Shown piece by piece: positions 5,732 to 32,926 of a DNA stretch of 34,883 nt. Below the pieces are notes generated by a model that saw only the letters and a list, made by a program, of their open reading frames with translations, did no database searches and had not been told where the DNA came from. The first letter of the stretch is position 1; the number at the start of each line of letters is the position of its first letter. The position numbers and the translations under genes are program-made. Source of the DNA: a virus (taxonomy: Duplodnaviria > Heunggongvirae > Uroviricota > Caudoviricetes); IMG/VR virus record IMGVR_UViG_2706794664_000015. One strand, given 5' to 3'.

Positions 5732-5817
5732 CTCAATAAATATGAGTTTATAAGTTAGGCCTCGAGATTTTGTAGAAAGGGATGTATACTGAGTATCGTA
5801 TAGATTTGGAGTGAGTG

Positions 5818-6840
5818 ATGACTGTAAAGGTGATAGACCTTTTTTGTGGTGCTGGCGGATTAACTCATGGTTTGCAGCTTGCGGGGCTTGATGTCGTTGC
5901 AGGCATTGACCTTGAGGGGGAATGTAGGTTTCCCTATGAAAGAAACAATAAATCTAAGTTTATTGAGCAAGATATCGCTAAAGTAACAAAAGAGGAACTG
6001 CTGAGGCTTTATGGTGATGCGTCTGTAAAAGTATTGGCAGGATGCGCACCTTGCCAACCTTTTTCAAAATATACTCAAGGAAAAGATAAGGCTGATGATA
6101 AAAAATGGCCTCTTCTTTATGAGTTCGAACGTTTAATTCGCGAAGTATCTCCAGAAATCGTAACAATGGAGAACGTTCCTGATGTAACTAAACATAAAGT
6201 TTATAATGATTTTTATAATTCATTGTTAAAGTTGGGCTATTATGTTTGGGCGTCTAAGATTGATTGTGTCGAATATGGAATCCCACAAAACCGTTCCCGT
6301 CATGTATTGTTGGCCTCAAAATTGGGGGCGATTGAGTTAGTAAAACGTGACGATGTTATTTTGAAAACAGTTAGAGATGCAATAGGAAATCTTCCTCCAT
6401 TAGAAGATGGCCAAACAGATCCAAATGATATATTACATAGAGCCAGTAAATTAAATCCGATTAATAAAAAAAGAATTATACACTCTGTTCCTGGTGGTAC
6501 ATGGAAGGACTGGCCGAAAGAGTTGGTTGCCGCTTGTCATATGAAATCCAGCGGTAAAGGGTATGCTAGTGTATATGGGCGCATGTCTTGGGATAAGCCA
6601 AGTCCAACAATTACAACTCTTTGTTATGGTTTCGGGAATGGGCGTTTTGGACATCCAGAACAGCATAGAGCGATTTCTCTTAGAGAGGCTGCTTTATTGC
6701 AAACTTTCCCGATGGATTATATTTTTGTAGAAGACAAAAACAAGTTTGTTATAAGAAGTATTGGGAAAATGATAGGTAATGCTGTTCCTGTGGAACTAGG
6801 AAAAGCAATTGGGCAATCAATCAAGAACCATTTAGAATGA
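5818..6840 (+). CDS. DNA (cytosine-5)-methyltransferase
   Basis: Motif I FCGAGG, motif IV PCQPFS, motif VI ENV, motif VIII QNRSRHV; ATG at 5818 with GGAG 6 nt upstream; AT-rich relative to the phage backbone; lies in the tin/old slot. Confidence 0.9.
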   Translation: MTVKVIDLFCGAGGLTHGLQLAGLDVVAGIDLEGECRFPYERNNKSKFIEQDIAKVTKEELLRLYGDASVKVLAGCAPCQPFSKYTQGKDKADDKKWPLLYEFERLIREVSPEIVTMENVPDVTKHKVYNDFYNSLLKLGYYVWASKIDCVEYGIPQNRSRHVLLASKLGAIELVKRDDVILKTVRDAIGNLPPLEDGQTDPNDILHRASKLNPINKKRIIHSVPGGTWKDWPKELVAACHMKSSGKGYASVYGRMSWDKPSPTITTLCYGFGNGRFGHPEQHRAISLREAALLQTFPMDYIFVEDKNKFVIRSIGKMIGNAVPVELGKAIGQSIKNHLE

Positions 6841-6846
6841 TAAAAT

Positions 6847-6863
6847 GGCCTGCTTTACAGGCC
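6847..6863. terminator. Bidirectional stem-loop between convergent genes
   Basis: GGCCTG (6847-6852) / CAGGCC (6858-6863) stem with 5-nt loop, flanked by A/T runs, in the 29-bp gap between the MTase stop and the HEPN-like gene stop. Confidence 0.5.
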
Positions 6864-6869
6864 TTATAA

Positions 6870-7550
6870 CTATTGTTCTAAATATTCATTATTATTTATA
6901 TAGTGCTCTATATTATTCACGATAGCATCAAGATAGGCGATTACTTCTAATGAAATATTCTCTAAGTCCTGATATGAAACATTTTTTCCAATCTCAGCAA
7001 ATGATACATTGCCATGAGATAAATCATTACGATGTTGTTTAACAGTGGCTAATTTTTCACCATGTTTAGTGTGAGTGTAATCGGAATGTGTAGAAAAACC
7101 ATATATTTTCGATTTTTCTTTGATTTCCTCTCTATCAATATTTCCTGAGAATATTTTCTTTTTGTTGAACGTGCCATAAGATATACCGCAAGATATACCT
7201 TTGGTAAGGTGATTAACTAAACTTTCAACATTTACAGATTCATTTTTTAATCTTTTTAATATTTCTGACCTGAGATTTTTCCTGAGTTTGTCAAATTCTA
7301 CGTTTCTATCATAAATAGTCTCATGAATAAGGCAGATAGCTTCTCTCATTGTTGATTCAATGAGGTTATATAACAGTATATATACTGCTCCCTTTAGAGT
7401 TTTTCGTGATTGAGCAGTAATGGAGAACTTATGTTCTTTATCATCAGCTGATATCAGTTCTGCACCGGCATACTCAATAAATTTCAAAAGATCCAAATAG
7501 GCCAAGATCTCTCCTGACCTTTCGTCAAAATCCTCACGAAAACGATCCAT
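6870..7550 (-). CDS. HEPN-like protein (Rx4H motif), second gene of a two-gene cargo operon
   Basis: 226-aa ORF; ATG (7548-7550) lies 1 nt from the upstream gene's stop (7552-7554); C-terminal KQHRNDLSHG fits the HEPN Rx4-6H motif; AT-rich. Confidence 0.65.
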   Translation of the reverse strand: MDRFREDFDERSGEILAYLDLLKFIEYAGAELISADDKEHKFSITAQSRKTLKGAVYILLYNLIESTMREAICLIHETIYDRNVEFDKLRKNLRSEILKRLKNESVNVESLVNHLTKGISCGISYGTFNKKKIFSGNIDREEIKEKSKIYGFSTHSDYTHTKHGEKLATVKQHRNDLSHGNVSFAEIGKNVSYQDLENISLEVIAYLDAIVNNIEHYINNNEYLEQ

Positions 7551-7551
7551 G

Positions 7552-8694
7552 TTAATCCTCTAATAATTTATCCCGAACATATTCAATTCGTTCAATTACC
7601 TTCACGCGACTATTAGCTCCGTCGGAAGTGGTCAATCGTTTGAATTCTTCTGAGCTTAGCCAATCTAAGTTCTTGGGAACAAGGTCAGGGACTTCACGTA
7701 ATGCAAGTGCTGCGCCAACAGCGAGAGATTCGAATCTAACTCGAGGTGTAGATTTTGCAGTAATAGTTTTCTTGAATCCTGCTGGGAAATAGTTTTCAAC
7801 AAAAGATAGAACATTAGCAAACTCTTGTTTCATTGAGTTTTGTTTAGTTTCGTCTATATCTCGATTTTCTGACATATAGTCATTTAGAAAATCCCGTACG
7901 GAATGATCAAAGTTCTTGTACTTATCTACGTAGGCAAAGAATCTTAATGTAAATTCTAACCGTTCATCTCGTTTTTCTTTAGTCTGAGATAAAGGTGCTA
8001 ATTCTTTAAATTTAGGTATTGTTGAGCATGGCTTAATAACCTGTGTATATAAATTTGTTGAACCAAGTTCTGATCCTTTACGGACTTCCATATCTTTCAA
8101 TATATCGCTGCCAGAGTTAATACGCTCAAAAAGATCTCTACGGGTTTCTTCATTGCATTTAGAACTCAATTCTATAACGCGGACAGGAATTCTCATGAAA
8201 CGACGTTGACGTGATAATGGTAAATCTTGGAATTTGAAACCATTAAGGACGTCTAAAGATTTCAGGTCTTGTAAAACTAATTCATTTTGGATAAAAGCGT
8301 GTATAGTCCTAACTCGTTGTGAGCCATCAACAATCTCAATTCGCCCATCTAAATCGGGATCTTCGGAGAGAACATCTGCTATAAATATATATGGTATAGG
8401 AAAACCCAAAATCAAAGACTCTATCAATTTTGATTGTCTTTTTTCACTCCAAACAAAATCCCTTTGATAATCAGGAACAAAGAGTTCGTTAGTATCATCC
8501 TCTAATCCGTTATGATACTTATTAACTAATAACTCAACGGTAAATTCTTTGGTCTCAAAATCCACATCCTTTTGCTCAGCACGAATTTGCTCTTCAGCGT
8601 TTTGCTTTATCACCTCTAGCTGAGCAAGCAACTCTGCTCTTTTCTTGGCATTATCTTCATTTTCTAGTTGAGATTTTAAATCAATAATGTCCAT
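7552..8694 (-). CDS. DUF262 / ParB-like (GmrS-type N-terminal domain) protein, first gene of the cargo operon
   Basis: 380 aa from ATG 8692-8694 (AAGGGA RBS upstream; ORF track extends to a TTG at 8712); PDYQRDFVW and DGSQR motifs characteristic of DUF262; AT-rich. Confidence 0.8.
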   Translation of the reverse strand: MDIIDLKSQLENEDNAKKRAELLAQLEVIKQNAEEQIRAEQKDVDFETKEFTVELLVNKYHNGLEDDTNELFVPDYQRDFVWSEKRQSKLIESLILGFPIPYIFIADVLSEDPDLDGRIEIVDGSQRVRTIHAFIQNELVLQDLKSLDVLNGFKFQDLPLSRQRRFMRIPVRVIELSSKCNEETRRDLFERINSGSDILKDMEVRKGSELGSTNLYTQVIKPCSTIPKFKELAPLSQTKEKRDERLEFTLRFFAYVDKYKNFDHSVRDFLNDYMSENRDIDETKQNSMKQEFANVLSFVENYFPAGFKKTITAKSTPRVRFESLAVGAALALREVPDLVPKNLDWLSSEEFKRLTTSDGANSRVKVIERIEYVRDKLLED

Positions 8695-8879
8695 GTCTAG
8701 TTCCCTTAACAAGTGTTAAAAATTGAAGCGGATAGCATACCGCATAGATCATGAAAAATGCCATCATGTGCATGGATTTGCATGCGTCAGAAGTCGCTTT
8801 TATTGTTAGTTATCACTAGCGCTGGCGTGCTCTTGGAGTGTTCATGCAACTGCATTAAAACCGCCCCATGAAGCGGGCG

Positions 8880-20480: not shown

Positions 20481-20925
20481 GTTTAAGCGTTTTGAAGACA
20501 GGCTGACCGGACTTATTGAGTCGCTGTCACCGTCAGGGCGTCGGCGACTGAGCGCCGAACTGGCGAAACGTCTGCGTCAGAGTCAGCAGCGTCGGGTGAT
20601 GGCACAGAAAGCCCCGGACGGCACACCCTACGCACCACGCCAGCAGCAGAGCGCCAGAAAAAAGACCGGTCGCGTTAAGCGAAAAATGTTTGCGAAACTT
20701 ATCANNNNNNNNNNNNNNNNNNNNNNNNNNNNNNNNNNNNNNNNNNNNNNNNNNNNNNNNNNNNNNNNNNNNNNNNNNNNNNNNNNNNNNNNNNNNNNNN
20801 NNNNNNNNNNNNNNNNNNNNNNNNNNNNNNNNNNNNNNNNNNNNNNNNNNNNNNNNNNNNNNNNNNNNNNNNNNNNNNNNNNNNNNNNNNNNNNNNNNNN
20901 NNNNNNNNNNNNNNNNNNNNNNNNN
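20473..20925 (+). CDS. S: Tail completion protein (P2 gpS-like)
   Basis: ATG 20473 overlapping the R stop; N-terminal 77 aa visible, remainder in N-mask 20705-20968; end estimated from a 150-aa gpS. Confidence 0.65.
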
Positions 20926-20996
20926 NNNNNNNNNNNNNNNNNNNNNNNNNNNNNNNNNNNNNNNNNNNGGTATGACCCGGCGGCATCCTTCCCGTT

Positions 20997-21632
20997 ATGA
21001 ACACTCTCGCAAATATTCAGGAACTCGCGCGCGCACTGCGCAACATGATCCGCACCGGCATTATCGTCGAAACCGACCTTAATGCCGGTCGCTGCCGTGT
21101 GCAGACCGGCGGCATGTGCACCGACTGGCTTCAGTGGCTGACCCATCGCGCCGGACGTTCGCGCACATGGTGGGCACCTTCCGTGGGGGAACAGGTGCTG
21201 ATTCTGGCCGTAGGCGGTGAACTCGACACGGCGTTCGTTCTGCCGGGGATTTATTCCGGTGATAACCCCGCGCCGTCTGCGTCGGCGGATGCCCTGCATA
21301 TCCGTTTCCCTGACGGGGCGGTGATTGAGTATGAACCTGAAACCAGTGCACTCACGGTAAGCGGAATTAAAACGGCCAGCGTGACGGCTTCTGATTCTGT
21401 TACTGCCACGGTGCCGGTGGTCACGGTGAAAGCATCAACCCGCGTCACTCTGGACACGCCGGAGGTGGTCTNNNNNNNNNNNNNNNNNNNNNNNNNNNNN
21501 NNNNNNNNNNNNNNNNNNNNNNNNNNNNNNNNNNNNNNNNNNNNNNNNNNNNNNNNNNNNNNNNNNNNNNNNNNNNNNNNNNNNNNNNNNNNNNNNNNNN
21601 NNNNNNNNNNNNNNNNNNNNNNNNNNNNNNNN
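20997..21632 (+). CDS. V: Baseplate assembly protein (P2 gpV-like)
   Basis: ATG 20997; 158 aa visible before N-mask 21472-21736; end estimated from a 211-aa gpV. Confidence 0.7.
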
Positions 21633-21647
21633 NNNNNNNNNNNNNNN

Positions 21648-21995
21648 NNNNNNNNNNNNNNNNNNNNNNNNNNNNNNNNNNNNNNNNNNNNNNNNNNNNN
21701 NNNNNNNNNNNNNNNNNNNNNNNNNNNNNNNNNNNNGCGCACGCCGGTCGGCTCACGGGTGATGCGTCGTGATTACGGCTCGTTGCTGGCGTCAATGATT
21801 GACCAGCCGCAGACCCCGGCGCTTGAGTTGCAGATTAAGGTCGCCTGTTACATGGCCGTGCTGAAATGGGAAGCCCGCGTCACCCTGTCATCCGTCACCA
21901 CGGCGCGCAGCTTTGACGGGCGAATGACGGTCACGTTAACCGGCCAGCACAACGACACCGGCCAGCCACTTTCGTTAACCATCCCTGTGAGTTGA
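21648..21995 (+). CDS. W: Baseplate wedge protein (P2 gpW-like)
   Basis: C-terminal 86 aa visible after the mask, ending at 21995; start is masked and estimated from a 115-aa gpW. Confidence 0.65.
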   Translation, partial: XXXXXXXXXXXXXXXXXXXXXXXXXXXXXXRTPVGSRVMRRDYGSLLASMIDQPQTPALELQIKVACYMAVLKWEARVTLSSVTTARSFDGRMTVTLTGQHNDTGQPLSLTIPVS

Positions 21996-22908: not shown

Positions 22909-23440
22909 TTCGCGACTGCTGCCGACCGGCTCATCACCGCTTGAAGTTGCCGCCGCAAAAGCCTGTGCGGAAATTGAAAAAACGCCGGTCAGGATTCGTG
23001 AACTGTGGAACCCGGATACCTGTCCGGCAAATCTGCTGCCGTGGCTGGCGTGGGCGTTTTCGGTCGACAGGTGGGATGAAAAGTGGCCGGAAGCGACAAA
23101 ACGCGCCGTTATCCGCGATGNNNNNNNNNNNNNNNNNNNNNNNNNNNNNNNNNNNNNNNNNNNNNNNNNNNNNNNNNNNNNNNNNNNNNNNNNNNNNNNN
23201 NNNNNNNNNNNNNNNNNNNNNNNNNNNNNNNNNNNNNNNNNNNNNNNNNNNNNNNNNNNNNNNNNNNNNNNNNNNNNNNNNNNNNNNNNNNNNNNNNNNN
23301 NNNNNNNNNNNNNNNNNNNNNNNNNNNNNNNNNNNNNNNNNNNNNNNNNNNNNNNNNNNNNNNNNNNNNNNNNTCCCGGCTACCTGTTCGCCGGTGGTGT
23401 GGCTTACGACGGCGATGTAATTACGGTTTACCCCGGATAA
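22901..23440 (+). CDS. I: Baseplate protein (P2 gpI-like)
   Basis: ATG 22901 overlapping the J end; interrupted by N-mask 23121-23373; ends at 23440 just before H. Confidence 0.7.
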   Translation: MSDSRLLPTGSSPLEVAAAKACAEIEKTPVRIRELWNPDTCPANLLPWLAWAFSVDRWDEKWPEATKRAVIRDXXXXXXXXXXXXXXXXXXXXXXXXXXXXXXXXXXXXXXXXXXXXXXXXXXXXXXXXXXXXXXXXXXXXXXXXXXXXXXXXXXXXXPGYLFAGGVAYDGDVITVYPG

Positions 23441-23450
23441 GTGAGGAATA

Positions 23451-25769
23451 ATGAGCACAAAATTCAGAACCGTTATCACCACTGCCGGTGCAGCAAAGCT
23501 GGCAGCGGCAACCGCACCGGGAGGGCGGAAGGTCAACATTACCACGATGGCCGTCGGGGATGGCGGTGGTAAATTGCCTGTCCCGGATGCCGGACAGACC
23601 GGGCTTATCCACGAAGTCTGGCGACATACGCTGAACAAAATCAGCCAGGACAAACGAAACAGTAATTATATTATCGCAGAGCTGGTTATTCCGCCGGAGG
23701 TGGGCGGTTTCTGGATGCGTGAGCTTGGCCTGTACGATGATGCGGGAACGTTAATTGCCGTGGCGAACATGGCCGAAAGTTATAAGCCAGCTCTTGCCGA
23801 AGGCTCAGGGCGTTCGCAGACCTGTCGCATGGTCATCATCGTCAGCAGTGTGGCCTCGGTGGAGCTGACCATTGACACCACAACGGTGATGGCGACACAG
23901 GATTACGTTGATGACAAAATTGCAGAGCACGAACAGTCACGACGTCACCCGGACGCCTCGCTGACCGCAAAAGGTTTTACTCAGTTAAGCAGTGCGACCA
24001 ACAGCACGTCTGAAACACTGGCCGCAACGCCGAAAGCGGTAAAGGCCGCCTATGACCTTGCTAACGGGAAATATACCGCACAGGACGCTACCACAGCTCG
24101 AAAAGGTCTTGTCCAGCTCAGTAGTGCCACCAACAGCACGTCTGAAACGCTTGCGGCAACGCCAAAGGCGGTTAAGACAGCGTATGACCTTGCTAACGGG
24201 AAATACACTGCACAGGACGCCACTACAGCGCGAAAAGGTCTTGTCCAGCTCAGTAGCGCCACCAACAGCGATTCTGAAACGCTTGCGGCAACACCAAAGG
24301 CGGTTAAGACAGCGTATGACCTTGCTAACGGGAAATACACTGCACAGGATGCCACCACAGCGCGAAAAGGTCTTGTCCAGCTAAGTAGTGCCATCAACAG
24401 CGATTCTGAAACGCTGGCCGCAACGCCAAAAGCAGTGAAGTCTGCCTATGACAATGCTGAAAAACGTCTTCAGAAAGATCAGAACGGTGCGGATATTCCG
24501 GGAAAGGATACCTTCACGAAAAATATCGGTGCCTGTCGTGCTTATAGCGGCGCTTTGAGCACTGAAGCCGGAAACTGGACAACCGCTCAGTTTATTGAAT
24601 GGCTGGATTCCCGTGGTGCATTTAATCATCCGTACTGGATGTGCAAAGGCTCCTGGTCATATGCAAATAACAAAATCATTACGGATACCGGATGTGGTGA
24701 TATCCACCTGGCTGGTTGTGTCGTCGAGGTCATGGGAACTAAATCTGCAATCACTATCCGAGTGACCACGCCAACAACATCAAGCGGTGGCGGTACAACC
24801 AGCGCGCAATTCACTTACATAAATCATGGGGACGGCTACTCCCCCGGCTGGCGTCGTGACTGGAATCGTCAGGGCGACTCAATGACCGGAACGATTAATC
24901 AGGATGGCGGAAGCCAGAATGCCTATATGTCTACGGCCTTATGTTCAGGCACCAGAGGCGGCAAAAAATATCTCAGAAAGTTTCGTGGTGGAGAAGGAGA
25001 TACTATCTGGCATGAAACAGTTCAGGGCGGGGTAATTCGCTGGGCGACAGGAAACAATGACGCTCAGGAAGAATTATCACTCAGCTCCGCTTATGGTCTC
25101 CGTTCAAGAGGTGAAATTACATCACTCAGTGCTAATGGTCTGCGCATTGCTTATGGCAATTATGGATTCTTTATCAGGAATGATGGCGGCAGCACATATT
25201 TAATGCTGACGGCCTCTGGCGATAAATTTGGGACATGGAACGGCTTAAGACCGCTGACTATCAATAACGCCAATGGCGGAGTGTCAATGGGGCATGGCCT
25301 GAGTGTTACAGGTGATATTGTCTCAAGTACCAAAGTACGTGCCGGTAGCGGGAAAAAGTTCACGGTCAGCAGCAGCAATACATCCACGAAGGAAGCCGCA
25401 TTCAATTTGTGGGGAAACTCAAGTCGTCCTGTGGTGGCTGAATTAGGTGATGATGCAGGCTGGCATTTTTACAGTCAGAGAAATACAGATAACAGCATCA
25501 CTTTTGCTGTTAACGGGCAGGTATCACCATCTAACTATGGCAACTTTGATTCACGCTATGTCCGGGATATCCGGCTTGGTGGTGCTGCCACATACAAACC
25601 TGCGAACAATGGTATGACATGGACACATCAGGCACCGTCCGGGTGTGTATATTCCGGCATTATTGTTCAGGATACCGGCTCAAACTCTGCCGATAACATT
25701 GGTGGCGTATATTACAGACCGGTGCAGAAATACATTAACGGGACTTGGTATAACGTGGCACAGGTATAA
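23451..25769 (+). CDS. H: Tail fiber protein (P2 gpH-like) with internal tandem repeats
   Basis: 772-aa ORF; conserved N-terminal tail-fiber region; 44-aa repeats in the middle; C-terminal region is the presumed receptor-binding part. Confidence 0.88.
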   Translation: MSTKFRTVITTAGAAKLAAATAPGGRKVNITTMAVGDGGGKLPVPDAGQTGLIHEVWRHTLNKISQDKRNSNYIIAELVIPPEVGGFWMRELGLYDDAGTLIAVANMAESYKPALAEGSGRSQTCRMVIIVSSVASVELTIDTTTVMATQDYVDDKIAEHEQSRRHPDASLTAKGFTQLSSATNSTSETLAATPKAVKAAYDLANGKYTAQDATTARKGLVQLSSATNSTSETLAATPKAVKTAYDLANGKYTAQDATTARKGLVQLSSATNSDSETLAATPKAVKTAYDLANGKYTAQDATTARKGLVQLSSAINSDSETLAATPKAVKSAYDNAEKRLQKDQNGADIPGKDTFTKNIGACRAYSGALSTEAGNWTTAQFIEWLDSRGAFNHPYWMCKGSWSYANNKIITDTGCGDIHLAGCVVEVMGTKSAITIRVTTPTTSSGGGTTSAQFTYINHGDGYSPGWRRDWNRQGDSMTGTINQDGGSQNAYMSTALCSGTRGGKKYLRKFRGGEGDTIWHETVQGGVIRWATGNNDAQEELSLSSAYGLRSRGEITSLSANGLRIAYGNYGFFIRNDGGSTYLMLTASGDKFGTWNGLRPLTINNANGGVSMGHGLSVTGDIVSSTKVRAGSGKKFTVSSSNTSTKEAAFNLWGNSSRPVVAELGDDAGWHFYSQRNTDNSITFAVNGQVSPSNYGNFDSRYVRDIRLGGAATYKPANNGMTWTHQAPSGCVYSGIIVQDTGSNSADNIGGVYYRPVQKYINGTWYNVAQV
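23970..24460 (+). repeat. Tandem 132-bp repeats (about 3.7 copies) inside tail fiber gene H
   Basis: Unit starts at 23970, 24102, 24234 and 24366 (period 132 bp, 44 aa: ...LSSATNSTSETLAATPKAVKAAYDLANGKYTAQDATTARKGLVQ...); near-identical copies with a few substitutions. Confidence 0.9.
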
Positions 25770-25772
25770 TTT

Positions 25773-26300
25773 ATGCAGCATTTGATAAATATAACGGCAG
25801 GTAATCCAAAAACGGTTGAACAATATCAATTGACAAAGGACTTTGATGTTGTCTGGTTTTTTTCAGAAGATGGTAAGAACTGGTACGAAGAACAAAAGTA
25901 TTTTGCTGATGACACGATAAAAATAGCGTACGACAAAGATAATATTATCCGCTATGTGGAAAAGGATGTGACAGCTATCAGACCGGATGGATTAAGTGTT
26001 GTTGAAGTGCCGGATATTACTGCTAACCGACGGGCGGACATTTCAGGGAACTGGATGTTTAAGGACTGTACAGTGATTAAACGAATTTATACGGCAGAGG
26101 AATTGCAGCAGCAGGCAGAAAATCGGAAAGCCAGACTTCTTGCAGATGCTGAATCCGTGATTTTGCCGCTGGAGCGCGCTGTCAGGCTGAATATGGCAAC
26201 AGATGAGGAGCGCAGTCGACTGGAGGCATGGGAACGCTACAGTGTTCTGGTCAGTCGTGTGGATCCTGCAAATCCTGAATGGCCGGAAATGCCGCAATAA
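25773..26300 (+). CDS. G: Tail fiber assembly chaperone (P2 gpG-like)
   Basis: 175-aa ORF directly downstream of H; conserved position and length. Confidence 0.82.
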
Positions 26301-26381: not shown

Positions 26382-26408
26382 AGACGCACAAGGTGGGCGT
26401 GTCTTTTT
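26382..26408 (+). terminator. Putative rho-independent terminator after G
   Basis: Imperfect GC-rich stem-loop (AGACGCACAAGGTGGGCGTGTCT) followed by TTTTT at 26404-26408; located between G and the convergent cargo gene. Confidence 0.45.
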
Positions 26409-26414
26409 CTTAAG

Positions 26415-27833
26415 CTACATCGGGCTCTTATATGGGGAATGAGAGTTTTTGAAACGCGGTTCTTCATGCTTCGGACTGTAAATTCTTGCATGATTATCTA
26501 TCACAACTTTACTTCCAAGAATATCTCGAGCTTCTCCTAACGACCACACAGTAGAAAGATCATTAGTCAAATTTCGATAGAGAGCACGAAACCCCTTGGG
26601 TTTTTTAAGATCATATAAGAAATCAGGAACTTTAACTTTAAAATTAAAGGTCGGTAGTTTCGGAAGGGAATTAATAGCCGCAACAGTATTGTATACATGT
26701 ACAAGCTTAGTTACAGGTACACCTTGTCTAGTCTTGAGCCCATACTTAGTTCGAATATAATCTGATTCTTTCGATACTTCAGTAAGCAATGCTCTTACTG
26801 ACTTATTAGCTTGAGGCAATTCATTTTCATCAAACAAGCGCTTTATTTCTCGCATTTTCTCACGGGCCCTTACAAATTCGTTGTTGTCCCTTATGTTATA
26901 AGCAGCTTCAACAATACAACTTGGATCACCAGTTTCTTTTGCGAGCCATGCCGAAAATAAAGGAAGCGAAGTTGCTGTTGCTACAGCTTTACCACCAGAA
27001 TGAATATCAATGAGATCATGACTTAACGAAGTGGAAAAGTTTTCTACAATATGTTTAGCATAGTTAAAACCATACTGACAGTTTTGGCTTAAATATGTCT
27101 GTTGATACGCCTGACGTAATGGATATAAAAAAGTATCTGCTTGAAGGTACTTAGCTGTGAGAGAATAAAATACTGCCCGATTAGCCAGCCATACAAGCGA
27201 AGCCACGAATGCTTTGATTGCATCTGATGCTTCACCAGCAGATGTGCCATCCCCCCATTTTGCTCCGGGAACTTTGTACCCCTTGCGAATAGGGTTGCCA
27301 AATCGATCGAGAAGTTCAACATCGCCATTTGTTCTATTACCAGACTCAGCAGCATCACGCAGTTCTGAAAAAATGGCAGCAGCAATGTTACCATATTTTT
27401 CAAACTCCTTACCTCCATCAGATAAGTTCTTCAGTGTTAGATGATAAACACTTGAACTAATGTCCCATGTACATATGATATGTGTCTGAAGAAGTTCAAT
27501 TAGTTTTTTAAAATCGTCATTAACAAATGTTCCACCACGAATTTTAGGTTTCAATGCATCAGATATTTTTTTTGCTTCACTTTCAATTTCATCCAACCCA
27601 TATTGTGCTTTATCAAGAAATAATATCTCTCTGAAACTTGAAATCCTACTCCCACGGTACTCTGGAATATAATCATCAACCGCGATAACGTGATCATAGA
27701 ACAAAATAGACTGTATATAGTTCTCAAATGCTATTATGTCTGTATCTACTGAGTCCTTCGATCTTGTTTTTACTTTCCCCTCGATTCTTTGGACTGCAGT
27801 TAGAGTTGAATTATCAATCAGTGCGTATGTCAT
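26415..27833 (-). CDS. Uncharacterised 472-aa cargo protein in the Z/fun slot (candidate defense gene)
   Basis: ATG 27831-27833 with AAGGAA RBS; AT-rich; antisense to the late operon between G and FI; no catalytic or NTP-binding motif recognised by eye. Confidence 0.8.
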   Translation of the reverse strand: MTYALIDNSTLTAVQRIEGKVKTRSKDSVDTDIIAFENYIQSILFYDHVIAVDDYIPEYRGSRISSFREILFLDKAQYGLDEIESEAKKISDALKPKIRGGTFVNDDFKKLIELLQTHIICTWDISSSVYHLTLKNLSDGGKEFEKYGNIAAAIFSELRDAAESGNRTNGDVELLDRFGNPIRKGYKVPGAKWGDGTSAGEASDAIKAFVASLVWLANRAVFYSLTAKYLQADTFLYPLRQAYQQTYLSQNCQYGFNYAKHIVENFSTSLSHDLIDIHSGGKAVATATSLPLFSAWLAKETGDPSCIVEAAYNIRDNNEFVRAREKMREIKRLFDENELPQANKSVRALLTEVSKESDYIRTKYGLKTRQGVPVTKLVHVYNTVAAINSLPKLPTFNFKVKVPDFLYDLKKPKGFRALYRNLTNDLSTVWSLGEARDILGSKVVIDNHARIYSPKHEEPRFKNSHSPYKSPM

Positions 27834-28099
27834 TTACATTCCTTAAATAAAAAACATTAATGGTTGCTCCAAAAATACTAGCAACCTTATTTCAGTGAAG
27901 TCAATTTTTTAACATTAATCATTTACACACGCTTGAAAAGTGATCGCTGAAAATGGCATTTACTACATTATCAAAGTTCCCATCGAAGATAATCGAAATT
28001 TTTCCCGGTAGCAGATATCGTGAGATTTAACGCTTTTCGCTCATAGCAGGCTGTCAGATTTGATAGCGTTTGGGCTATGTAAACTGTCAGTCGGAAAAT

Positions 28100-28170
28100 G
28101 AGTGTGTACAAATCAGGACATGCGGGCGAATTGCCCGCATTTTCTTTATCTGTTGTTTCATCCACTGACC
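28100..28170 (+). promoter_or_regulatory. Candidate Ogr-dependent late promoter upstream of FI
   Basis: TGT-N12-ACA element at 28103-28120, as described for P2 late promoters, about 125 bp upstream of the FI start; adjacent GC hairpin GCGGGC-GAATT-GCCCGC (28122-28138). Confidence 0.35.
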
Positions 28171-28243
28171 AGCCAGGTCAAATAGCGTCTCATGCACTGC
28201 CCAACAGAAAATAGTTGCACCCATTAACCACGGAGTTAAACGG

Positions 28244-29434
28244 ATGAGTGACTATCATCACGGCGTGCAGGTGCTGGAGATTAACGACGGCACCCGCGTC
28301 ATTTCCACCGTATCCACTGCCATTGTCGGCATGGTCTGCACGGCCAGCGATGCGGATGCGGAAACCTTCCCCCTCAATAAACCGGTGCTGATTACCAATG
28401 TGCAGAGCGCAATTGCAAAGGCCGGTAAAAAAGGCACGCTGGCGGCATCGTTGCAGGCCATCGCCGACCAGTCAAAACCGGTCACCGTTGTCGTGCGTGT
28501 GGAAGACGGCACCGGCGACGACGAGGAAACGAAACTCGCGCAGACCGTTTCCAATATCATCGGCACCACCGACGAAAACGGTCAGTACACCGGACTGAAA
28601 GCCCTGCTGGCGGCGGAGTCGGTAACCGGTGTTAAACCGCGTATTCTCGGCGTGCCGGGACTGGACACCAAAGAGGTGGCTGTTGCACTGGCATCAGTCT
28701 GTCAGAAGCTGCGCGCTTTCGGGTATATCAGCGCATGGGGCTGTAAGACCGTTTCCGAGGTGAAAGCCTACCGTCAGAATTTCAGCCAGCGTGAGCTGAT
28801 GGTCATCTGGCCGGATTTCCTCGCATGGGATACGGTCGCCAGTACCACCGCCACCGCGTATGCCACCGCCCGTGCGCTGGGTCTGCGCGCTAAAATCGAC
28901 CAGGAGCAGGGCTGGCATAAAACGCTGTCCAACGTCGGGGTGAACGGTGTTACCGGCATCAGCGCGTCCGTATTCTGGGATTTGCAGGAGTCCGGCACCG
29001 ATGCTGACCTGCTTAACGAGTCAGGCGTCACAACGCTGATTCGCCGTGACGGTTTCCGCTTCTGGGGTAACCGTACCTGCTCTGATGACCCGCTGTTCCT
29101 CTTTGAAAACTACACCCGCACCGCGCAGGTGCTGGCCGACACGATGGCTGAGGCGCACATGTGGGCGGTGGACAAGCCCATCACCGCAACGCTGATTCGC
29201 GACATCGTTGACGGCATCAATGCCAAATTCCGTGAGCTGAAAACAAACGGCTATATCGTGGATGCGACCTGCTGGTTCAGCGAAGAATCCAACGATGCGG
29301 AAACCCTCAAGGCCGGAAAACTGTATATCGACTACGACTATACCCCGGTGCCTCCTCTTGAAAACCTGACCCTGCGCCAGCGTATTACCGATAAATACCT
29401 GGCAAATCTGGTCACCTCGGTTAACAGCAATTAA
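28244..29434 (+). CDS. FI: Tail sheath protein (P2 gpFI-like)
   Basis: 396-aa ORF; conserved position and length. Confidence 0.9.
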   Translation: MSDYHHGVQVLEINDGTRVISTVSTAIVGMVCTASDADAETFPLNKPVLITNVQSAIAKAGKKGTLAASLQAIADQSKPVTVVVRVEDGTGDDEETKLAQTVSNIIGTTDENGQYTGLKALLAAESVTGVKPRILGVPGLDTKEVAVALASVCQKLRAFGYISAWGCKTVSEVKAYRQNFSQRELMVIWPDFLAWDTVASTTATAYATARALGLRAKIDQEQGWHKTLSNVGVNGVTGISASVFWDLQESGTDADLLNESGVTTLIRRDGFRFWGNRTCSDDPLFLFENYTRTAQVLADTMAEAHMWAVDKPITATLIRDIVDGINAKFRELKTNGYIVDATCWFSEESNDAETLKAGKLYIDYDYTPVPPLENLTLRQRITDKYLANLVTSVNSN

Positions 29435-30449: not shown

Positions 30450-32926
30450 CAATGTAAAATTACAGGTATTGCTCAGGGCTGTTGACCAGGCGTCCCGCCC
30501 GTTTAAATCCATCCGCAGAGCGAGTAAGTTGCTGTCGGGGGATATCCGGGAAACACAAAAATCACTGCGCGAGCTGAACGGTCACGCATCCCGTATTGAG
30601 GGATTCCGCAAGACCAGTGCACAGCTCGCCGTGACTGGTCATGCACTTGAAAAGGCACGGCAGGAGGCCGAAGCCCTTGCCACACAGTTTAAAAACACCG
30701 AACGCCCGACCCGTGCTCAGGCGAAAGTGCTGGAATCCGCAAAGCGTGCGGCGGAGGACTTACAGGCGAAATATAACCGCCTGACAGATTCCGTTAAACG
30801 CCAGCAGCGGGAACTGGCCGCTGTGGGAATTAATACCCGCAATCTTGCACATGATGAGCAGGGACTGAAAAACCGTATCAGTGAAACCACCGCCCAGCTT
30901 AACCGGCAGCGTGACGCGCTGGCGCGTGTCAGTGCGCAACAGGCAAAACTTAACGCAGTCAAACAGCGTTATCAGGCCGGAAAGGAACTGGCCGGAAATA
31001 TGGCCTCAGTGGGCGCTGCCGGTGTGGGGATTGCTGCTGCGGGAACGATAGCCGGAGTTAAGCTGCTGATGCCAGGTTATGAGTTTGCGCAGAAAAACTC
31101 AGAATTGCAGGCTGTGCTCGGTGTGGCAAAAGACTCCGCCGAAATGGCTGCACTCCGCAAGCAGGCGCGCCAGCTCGGTGACAACACCGCCGCCTCAGCG
31201 GATGATGCGGCCGGTGCACAGATTATCATTGCGAAAGCGGGTGGGGATGTTGATGCCATTCAGGCGGCAACGCCGGTCACGCTGAATATGGCGCTGGCGA
31301 ACCGCCGCACAATGGAAGAAAACGCCGCCCTGCTGATGGGGATGAAATCCGCCTTTCAGCTTTCAAACGATAAGGTCGCTCATATCGGGGATGTTCTCTC
31401 CATGACGATGAACAAAACCGCCGCTGATTTTGACGGCNNNNNNNNNNNNNNNNNNNNNNNNNNNNNNNNNNNNNNNNNNNNNNNNNNNNNNNNNNNNNNN
31501 NNNNNNNNNNNNNNNNNNNNNNNNNNNNNNNNNNNNNNNNNNNNNNNNNNNNNNNNNNNNNNNNNNNNNNNNNNNNNNNNNNNNNNNNNNNNNNNNNNNN
31601 NNNNNNNNNNNNNNNNNNNNNNNNNNNNNNNNNNNNNNNNNNNNNNNNNNNNNNNNNNNNNNNNNNNNNNNNNNNNNNNNNNNNNNNNNNNNNNNNNNNN
31701 NNNNNNNNNNAGAAATGCAGGCCAGCTTTGAGAAAAACCGGCTCGGTACTGCCCAGCAGGCCGAATACATGAAAACCATTTTCGGGGAGGAGGCCAGCTC
31801 AGCCGCCGCTGTGCTGATGACTGCCGCGTCAACCGGAAAGCTGGACAAACTGACCGCTGCGTTTAAAGCCTCAGACGGGAAGACCGCAGAGCTGGTAAAT
31901 ATCATGCAGGACAACCTCGGCGGTGACTTTAAGGAGTTTCAGTCCGCTTATGAGGCGGTGGGGACAGACCTGTTTGACCAGCAGGAAGGCGCGCTACGTA
32001 AGCTCACGCAGACGGCCACAAAGTATGTGTTAAAACTCGACGGCTGGGTACAGAAAAACAAATCACTGGCGTCAACCATTGGCCTCATTGCCGGTGGCGC
32101 GCTGGCGCTGACTGGCATCATCGGTGCAATTGGTCTTGTAGCCTGGCCGGTTATCACCGGCATCAATGCCATCATCGCGGCAGCAGGCGCAATGGGGGCA
32201 ATCTTCACGACGGTTGGTAGTGCCGTTATGACGGCCATCGGGGCGATTAGCTGGCCGGTTGTGGCTGTGGTGGCCGCCATTGTCGCCGGGGCGTTGCTTA
32301 TCCGTAAATNNNNNNNNNNNNNNNNNNNNNNNNNNNNNNNNNNNNNNNNNNNNNNNNNNNNNNNNNNNNNNNNNNNNNNNNNNNNNNNNNNNNNNNNNNN
32401 NNNNNNNNNNNNNNNNNNNNNNNNNNNNNNNNNNNNNNNNNNNNNNNNNNNNNNNNNNNNNNNNNNNNNNNNNNNNNNNNNNNNNNNNNNNNNNNNNNNN
32501 NNNNNNNNNNNNNNNNNNNNNNNNNNNNNNNNNNNNNNNNNNNNNNNNNNNNNNNNNNNNNNNNNNNNNNTTAATGCGTTCAACAAATTGCGCAGCGGCA
32601 TTGACTGGGTACTGGAAAAGCTCGGGGTCATCAACAAAGAGTCAGACACACTTGACCAGACCGCCGCCAGAACTCATGCCGCCACGTATGGCACCGGTGA
32701 TTATATTCCGGCGACCAGCTCTTATGCAGGCTATCAGGCTTATCAGCCGGTCACGGCACCGGCTGGCCGCTCTTATGTGGACCAGAGTAAAAACGAATAT
32801 CACATCAGCCTGACGGGTGGTACTGCACCGGGGACACAGCTTGACCGCCAGTTACAGGATGCGCTCGAAAAATACGAGCGGGATAAACGTGCGCGCGCCC
32901 GTGCCAGCATGATGCATGACGGTTAA
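30442..32926 (+). CDS. T: Tail tape measure protein (P2 gpT-like)
   Basis: About 827 codons; coiled-coil-rich N-terminus, Gly/Ala-rich hydrophobic segment; interrupted by N-masks 31438-31710 and 32310-32570, with reading frame differing between unmasked segments. Confidence 0.85.

Follow-up and report, generated by a model that had tools for sequence, protein, structure and literature searches.

Here, we describe a gene of 472 codons in IMG/VR virus record IMGVR_UViG_2706794664_000015, a stretch of 34,883 nucleotides (hereafter the window) that represents a P2-like prophage of Escherichia coli/Shigella, and tentatively interpret its product as a stand-alone, autoinhibited PIN-like nuclease acting in phage defence or abortive infection. 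The gene occupies the Z/fun hotspot between tail genes G and FI as a small swapped module, its relatives lie in defence islands of unrelated bacteria, and the N-terminal part of the protein is predicted to fold like a PIN domain. The initial annotation, made from the letters of the DNA, had taken the gene for a defence or exclusion factor because of its position, which is a reasonable contextual inference.

The open reading frame (ORF) begins with ATG and lies exactly where it had been placed, that is on the minus strand between G and FI and antisense to both late genes. The features of the region are as follows:

25773-26300, plus strand: gene G, tail fiber assembly protein, named after RefSeq in an E. 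coli prophage
26415-27833, minus strand: coding sequence of the 472-aa orphan protein, from the ORF list, with ATG start and stop codon at 26415-26417
26386-28030, minus strand: swapped cargo module consisting of the gene, ~30 bp downstream and ~197 bp upstream, delimited by the backbone breakpoints (guanine-cytosine (GC) content 0.372 vs 0.512 for the window)
28244-29434, plus strand: gene FI, phage tail sheath protein, named after RefSeq in an E. coli prophage

Prophages in E. coli chromosomes match the window at 99.9% identity over the 2.7 kb around the gene, and in one such prophage the RefSeq names around the gene are tail fiber protein, tail fiber assembly protein, phage tail sheath protein and tail tube protein. 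The protein is on record for E. coli as WP_000220361.1, labelled 'hypothetical protein', and an identical sequence has been deposited from Shigella sonnei. It is encoded by a real gene and not by a chance ORF, because two database searches returned 282 homologues and 326 cluster representatives, respectively, nearly all of them full-length.

Alignment with three P2-like prophages carrying other cargo revealed that homology to the P2 backbone stops at 26384-26386 and restarts at 28031-28034, and the swapped module therefore comprises ~1.65 kb (26386-28030). The gene itself has a GC content of 0.378 as compared to 0.573 for FI. Its intergenic gaps measure 114 bp downstream on the G side and 410 bp upstream on the FI side, as the initial annotation had stated. 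The further statement that these flanks are long and AT-rich applies to the 197 bp next to the gene in the upstream gap (27834-28030, GC 0.31), the only share of this gap that belongs to the cargo, but neither to the remaining 213 bp (28031-28243, GC 0.465), which are conserved P2 backbone, nor to the 114-bp gap, which at a GC content of 0.474 is not notably AT-rich. The conserved backbone just upstream of FI also contains a terminator-like hairpin on the late-gene strand (28120-28140, plus strand; ATGCGGGCGAATTGCCCGCAT followed by TTTCTTTATC), whose position would let it insulate transcription of the FI operon from any hotspot cargo.

A survey of the slot in related prophages showed how variable its content is. 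The G/FI flanks are present in 2,075 of 5,426 complete E. coli genomes, only 7 of which carry the 472-aa gene, each time in the G-FI slot and with at least 99.5% identity; these strains were from humans, chicken, cattle and a wild bird. The other occupants comprise a 197-aa 'lysogenic conversion protein' of the Z/fun type, a restriction endonuclease, a RES-family NAD+ phosphorylase and a helix-turn-helix/acetyltransferase pair. The reading of the slot as a variable cargo position is thus supported by more than 2,000 genomes with these flanks, and in the literature the G-FI slot is described as one of two classical P2 hotspots (10.1101/2024.10.15.618418). Genes of unknown function are frequent in such hotspots and have often been validated as defence genes (PMC13586616). 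Rousset et al., in their large experimental survey, focused on the other P2 hotspot, old/tin (PMC9122126). With P2 Z/fun, which provides lysogenic conversion and T5 exclusion, and with other G-FI cargo, the gene shares the slot, breakpoints that agree within a few bases and a moron-type organization. Identity with the Z/fun gene was nevertheless rejected: the Z/fun-type protein has 197 aa and is encoded on the opposite strand, and the DNA alignment is limited to the flanks.

To characterize the genomic surroundings of the family, the ORFs located up to 6 kb from each of 48 homologues were clustered all-against-all. No conserved partner gene was found among them, in line with the single-gene module claimed earlier, and the recurrent neighbours were confined to lineage-specific synteny in Pseudomonas and to generic families at shifting positions. 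Nonetheless, homologues repeatedly lie beside known defence genes in unrelated genomes, in addition to the P2 G-FI hotspot. In Pseudomonas, a complete Hachiman system (HamA 8e-276, HamB 1.6e-250) and an LmuB-like SMC ATPase directly adjoin the homologue. MksB/MksE/MksF (Mks/Wadjet-like) are encoded just upstream of it in Desulfotalea, and an OLD-family nuclease, an integrase and a relaxase are close to it in Pantoea. The Pectobacterium locus includes a HEPN_Toprim_N/HEPN_RiboL-PSP protein 120 bp upstream as well as CcdAB and an SMC-MComp1-CTD1 cluster, and ParDE follows directly downstream in Halomonas. A metagenomic copy, inserted in a type II secretion system cluster, is flanked by a TIR protein and a DUF4062 protein; the copies of Tenderia, Serratia and Citrifermentans are located among insertion sequence (IS) elements, conjugative-element cargo or a TrwC fragment, and the Acinetobacter copy is the sole one among housekeeping genes. 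Assessed qualitatively and without a statistical background model, these neighbourhoods show the guilt-by-association pattern that is classical for defence genes, and it is from this genomic context that we infer a role in defence. A further neighbour was observed in several Pseudomonas species (loci L031-L033), where a 1,321-aa protein encoded ~300 bp upstream directly adjoins the homologue. It combines DUF4365 with TPR repeats, weakly matches the PIN domain of the TPR-GreAB-C-PIN conflict system and is not recognized by PADLOC.

The family is small, widely scattered and rigid in length. A word-indexed search yielded the 282 homologues, nearly all of 472-474 aa, with those at 50-90% identity coming from Pantoea, Serratia, Pectobacterium, Acinetobacter, Halomonas, Vibrio, Psychrobacter, Desulfotalea (72%), Citrifermentans and Ca. 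Tenderia. Among 1.84 billion cluster representatives, only the 326 members were recovered in an exhaustive profile search. Nearly all of them have ~460-475 aa; full-length members measure 440-485 aa and are in every case devoid of an added domain. Scanning one genome per species, we detected the family in 44 of 185,579 species, among them Nitrospira (72%), Cyanobium (60%), Verrucomicrobia, Chloroflexi, Clostridia, Bacteroidota and Leptospirales. Eleven Pseudomonas species carry homologues at ~36% identity, and a Clostridium kluyveri plasmid as well as P. aeruginosa megaplasmids also carry copies. That the family is rare, patchily distributed and highly identical between phyla indicates spread by horizontal transfer under strong purifying selection. 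The fixed length of ~472 aa and the 72% identity between Enterobacteria and Nitrospira or Desulfotalea represent an unusual rigidity, which suggests tight intramolecular constraints. Shortened copies were also encountered: proteins of 379, 157 and 140 aa are present in Shigella sonnei, S. boydii and E. coli without a flag for a partial gene at a contig end, and the P. aeruginosa megaplasmid copies align in two pieces. These cases hint at recurrent inactivation, as expected of a costly or toxic gene.

Sequence comparison connects the protein to no family of known function. Searches of Pfam, NCBIfam and PADLOC gave zero matches at E ≤ 10, and single-protein and family-profile searches of Protein Data Bank (PDB) sequences gave insignificant matches only (E at least 0.13). 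The sole family match, over the full length, was to PHROG 13435, whose function is unknown. When the 77 family members were compared with PADLOC-DB v2.0.0, which covers systems described up to 2023, scattered single matches with E values of at least 0.012 were obtained. The family was not found by tblastn in 50,697 phage records, a Foldseek search of BFVD retrieved nothing under an E value of 0.1, and there was no match to structural protein families. Neither a transmembrane segment nor a signal peptide was found in the protein. Weak hmmscan matches to PF20515 (Tet-like 2OG-Fe(II) oxygenase) in 7 of the 77 members (best E 0.008) are probably noise, though seven members touch the same family. 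In the literature, including the supplements of the P2 hotspot and DefensePredictor papers, WP_000220361, other locus tags of the family or the gene are not mentioned.

Structure prediction provided a candidate mechanism. A first model, computed from 39 close sequences, was poor (predicted local distance difference test (pLDDT) score of 62), but addition of divergent representatives down to 21% identity gave a model with a pLDDT of 80 and a predicted template modelling score of 0.84, in which residues 1-140 reach pLDDT values of ~87-95. Together with the conserved residues, this model divides the protein into two parts:

27423-27833, minus strand, codons 1-137: predicted PIN-like alpha/beta domain, acidic (isoelectric point 5.2)
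26418-27422, minus strand, codons 138-472: family-specific, predicted mostly helical domain, basic (isoelectric point 9.3)

The predicted N-terminal domain has the architecture of the PIN fold, i.e. three alpha/beta/alpha layers built from ~130 aa around a central parallel sheet. In PIN domains, three or four conserved acidic residues form the metal-binding pocket: an Asp follows strand 1, a Glu is located ~35 residues later, and two further Asp/Glu residues complete the set. Among the 77 sequences, D7 is retained in 75, D32 in all 77 and D47 in 71, and position 37 is Glu in 74 and Asp in 3. D7 is placed at the end of strand 1 within a D-N-x-T motif, whose N8 and T10 are near-invariant, and D7 and E37 match PIN motifs 1 and 2 by position and are kept down to 19% identity. 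For motifs 3 and 4, there are weaker candidates (D107, Asp/Glu in 50/77; D124, Asp in 59/77), and the acidic residues may together form such a pocket. Further conserved residues in the same alignment are R16, G19, D53/D54 (in most members), Y55, R63, W123 and S128 in the N-domain, and W215, R219, Y223, P238, R240, P291, R324 and G433 in the C-domain. The residues that remain invariant even at 19-26% identity, in the most divergent members, are D7, T10, R16, G19, D32, E37, R219, P238, R240, P291, R324 and G433. The protein terminates in a tail of the form …H-S-x-(F/W)-K-x-P-M in most members (pLDDT >90), which is missing from the most divergent subgroup. Thus, the earlier statement that a catalytic signature is absent holds for searches of Pfam, NCBIfam, PADLOC and PDB sequences, but not in view of a predicted PIN-like domain with near-invariant D7, D32 and E37.

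Sequence comparison did not connect the protein to the PIN group. hmmscan against Pfam gave no PIN-family match for the query, among the 25 families listed for the 77 members, or for 10 further divergent members, and hhalign of residues 1-140 with a VapC profile returned a probability of 0.3%, the VapC profile being of low diversity and too narrow for a decisive negative. Because the assignment is based on the predicted fold and on residue positions, without support from sequence or profile comparison, we regard a PIN-like fold of the N-domain as likely and its activity as a nuclease as plausible. It is unlikely, by contrast, that the protein acts in defence or exclusion with a PIN-like domain that is non-catalytic or represents a nucleotide- or ligand-binding Rossmann-like module. 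In that case, it would act for example by blocking a phage protein, by nucleotide binding or by complex assembly.

If the PIN-like domain is an active nuclease, the system could work as follows. The gene and its flanks would constitute a self-contained, horizontally mobile anti-phage module of the abortive-infection type, a moron in the Z/fun hotspot that is expressed in the lysogen from its own promoter. Its product would be a cytoplasmic two-domain protein, in which the N-terminal ~137 residues serve as a metal-dependent effector with D7, D32, E37 and D47, plus D53/D54, as candidate catalytic or metal-binding residues. The basic, helical C-terminal ~335 residues, with their three invariant arginines, would bind the nucleic-acid substrate, hold the nuclease off in uninfected cells and sense a phage cue, as in fused toxin-antitoxin (TA) proteins. 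Upon infection, the nuclease would cut host or phage RNA (tRNA, rRNA or mRNA) and thereby halt phage production. A more far-reaching version appears doubtful at present: the protein would be the first representative of a hitherto undescribed family of immune nucleases consisting of one chain, in which a cryptic PIN-like domain that sequence profiles do not recognize is fused to a previously unseen sensor/regulatory domain of ~335 aa, the invariant arginines of the C-domain and the near-invariant tail (…K-S-P-M-COOH) gate the active site, and horizontal transfer has carried the family over at least ten phyla with hardly any change in length.

Among known systems, the closest parallel is DS-3 (WP_022645725.1) from the DefensePredictor study, a validated one-protein defence of E. 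coli that relies on a PIN nuclease without antitoxin and whose catalytic mutants are unprotected (PMC13092281). Both are antitoxin-free single genes of the E. coli accessory genome, combine a PIN-type nuclease (predicted in our case) with a large helical region and are proposed to be autoinhibited until infection. However, DS-3 has 340 aa and, according to HHpred, a PIN domain split between the N- and C-termini, whereas the PIN-like fold of the orphan protein is contiguous (residues 1-137) and joined to an unrelated domain of 335 aa. Homology was rejected, as hhalign of the family profile with DS-3 gave a probability of 0.2%. Moreover, protection by DS-3 is experimentally validated, whereas protection by the orphan protein is a prediction. 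In comparison to VapC, the PIN-domain (PF01850) toxin of type II VapBC modules, the orphan protein is 3.5 times longer, possesses the extra C-terminal domain, shows no profile similarity and has only partly conserved third and fourth acidic residues. Its gene, moreover, has neither an antitoxin gene nor a conserved neighbour. A VapBC module was rejected for lack of an adjacent antitoxin, which is missing at the 48 loci, the small divergent ORF upstream having no coding signature. By analogy only, the proposed arrangement also resembles fused TA defence proteins such as CapRel-SJ46 (PMC9712102), likewise prophage-encoded, in which a toxic enzyme at the N-terminus and a regulatory/sensor domain at the C-terminus form one chain. 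The enzymes are unrelated, as CapRel-SJ46 contains a RelA/SpoT-like pyrophosphokinase in place of a predicted PIN-like fold.

Could the gene instead serve the element that carries it, for example as a fused TA-like addiction module, a counter-defence gene or a factor in inter-element competition? The gene is always on or beside mobile DNA (P2 prophage, integrative/conjugative elements, IS elements, plasmids), classical TA pairs adjoin it, its truncation in Shigella and E. coli points to a cost, and translation of distant homologues starts at the weak codon TTG. Anti-defence genes tend to be confined to phages, yet the family is absent from the 50,697 phage genomes and has no structural relative in BFVD, and the gene also occurs in chromosomal defence islands beside Hachiman. 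As addiction and defence can coexist, the two roles are not mutually exclusive, and we rate a purely selfish role as somewhat more improbable than a non-catalytic defence protein. The position between tail genes, in a hotspot that also exchanges tail-fibre genes (10.1101/2024.10.15.618418), would suit a factor that is linked to these tail genes and acts in phage morphogenesis, host range or lysogenic conversion. This reading and that of an ordinary housekeeping gene are very improbable and largely refuted by the distribution: over 99% of the P2-like prophages that share these flanks lack the gene, and it occurs in non-phage contexts across many phyla. The strand opposite to the late operon, the foreign GC content, and the lack of a signal peptide, a transmembrane segment or a match to a structural-protein family also speak against them.

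Returning to the proposed defence module, its upstream region contains the following candidate expression signals:

27840-27844, minus strand: Shine-Dalgarno sequence AAGGA, 6 nt upstream of the ATG, retained as (A/G)AGG(A/G) in relatives from Enterobacterales
27875-27904, minus strand: sigma-70-like promoter candidate with TTGACT, an 18-nt spacing with TG extension and TAGTAT, from a consensus scan (9/12 matches)
27953-28047, no strand assigned: conserved non-coding block, upstream of the start codon by 120-215 bp, which outside P2 prophages accompanies the gene in Lonsdalea, Pantoea and Serratia

The ribosome-binding site was part of the initial annotation and is readily recognized. The promoter assignment is tentative, because the region holds no more such sites than shuffled sequences; the TTGA of its -35 element is kept in relatives and the -10 element varies. 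In Enterobacterales relatives residing in non-P2 contexts, ~215 bp upstream and ~50-96 bp downstream travel together with the gene, which agrees with the module boundaries in E. coli. A four-sequence upstream alignment that contains the conserved block has a mean column identity of 80% over 239 columns, and the block itself includes TGAGCGA(A/G)(A/G)AGCG and a TTCGAT...TTCGAT direct repeat. An Rfam search of the block gave no match, and RNAalifold on four sequences only yielded -7 kcal/mol without covariation; a conserved RNA structure was thus not found. A small divergent ORF (27953-28030) was rejected as coding, since the differences per codon position (37/44/46) display no third-position bias and the copy in the window has a premature stop. 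An RNA or peptide partner hidden in the block is therefore unsupported. The block is probably cis-regulatory DNA and may be an operator for some regulator. As to translation initiation, homologues from Enterobacterales start with ATG. In distant homologues (Acinetobacter, Halomonas, Zobellella, Nitrospira), the start codon is TTG and follows a near-identical TGAGGAAATAAA, though the upstream DNA is unrelated.

Elsewhere in the prophage, the other classical P2 hotspot at the old/tin position (5815-8712) holds AT-rich cargo, too:

5815-6840, plus strand: C5 cytosine DNA methylase (PF00145, 3e-58)
6870-7550, minus strand: HEPN_MAE_28990 protein (6e-29)
7552-8712, minus strand: GmrSD_N/DUF262 protein (PADLOC NsnA 2e-54, PD-T4-2_A 2.5e-35)

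By these matches, the cargo looks like a Menshen/PD-T4-2-like DUF262+HEPN pair beside a methylase. In tail fibre gene H, a 132-nt (44-aa) tandem repeat is present at 23991-24452 in 3.5 copies with 89% matches, and its units encode '...LSSATNS.SETLAATPKAVK.AYDLANGKYTAQDATTARKGLVQ'. The window further contains ten runs of N, each of 250-290 nt and 2,630 nt in total, which account for apparent low-GC bins and for X stretches in translations, e.g. in the tape-measure gene; none touches the 472-aa gene:

12230-12495: N run
12603-12892: N run
16068-16325: N run
16520-16769: N run
17607-17856: N run
20705-20968: N run
21472-21736: N run
23121-23373: N run
31438-31710: N run
32310-32570: N run

Taken together, the rigidity of the protein, the spread of its family across phyla, the novelty of the C-terminal domain and the ease of testing make this gene a good candidate for a defence system; the module is easy to clone and test because it comprises only 1.65 kb with its own putative promoter. 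If our interpretation is correct, the gene would define a new one-gene anti-phage family that is invisible to Pfam, NCBIfam and PADLOC. It would also provide a second architecture for antitoxin-less PIN-type defence, unrelated in sequence to DS-3. The C-terminal domain, for which there is no known structural relative, is presumably the site of phage sensing or autoinhibition. Thus, the less-studied Z/fun hotspot of P2-like phages harbours unrecognized candidates for phage defence.
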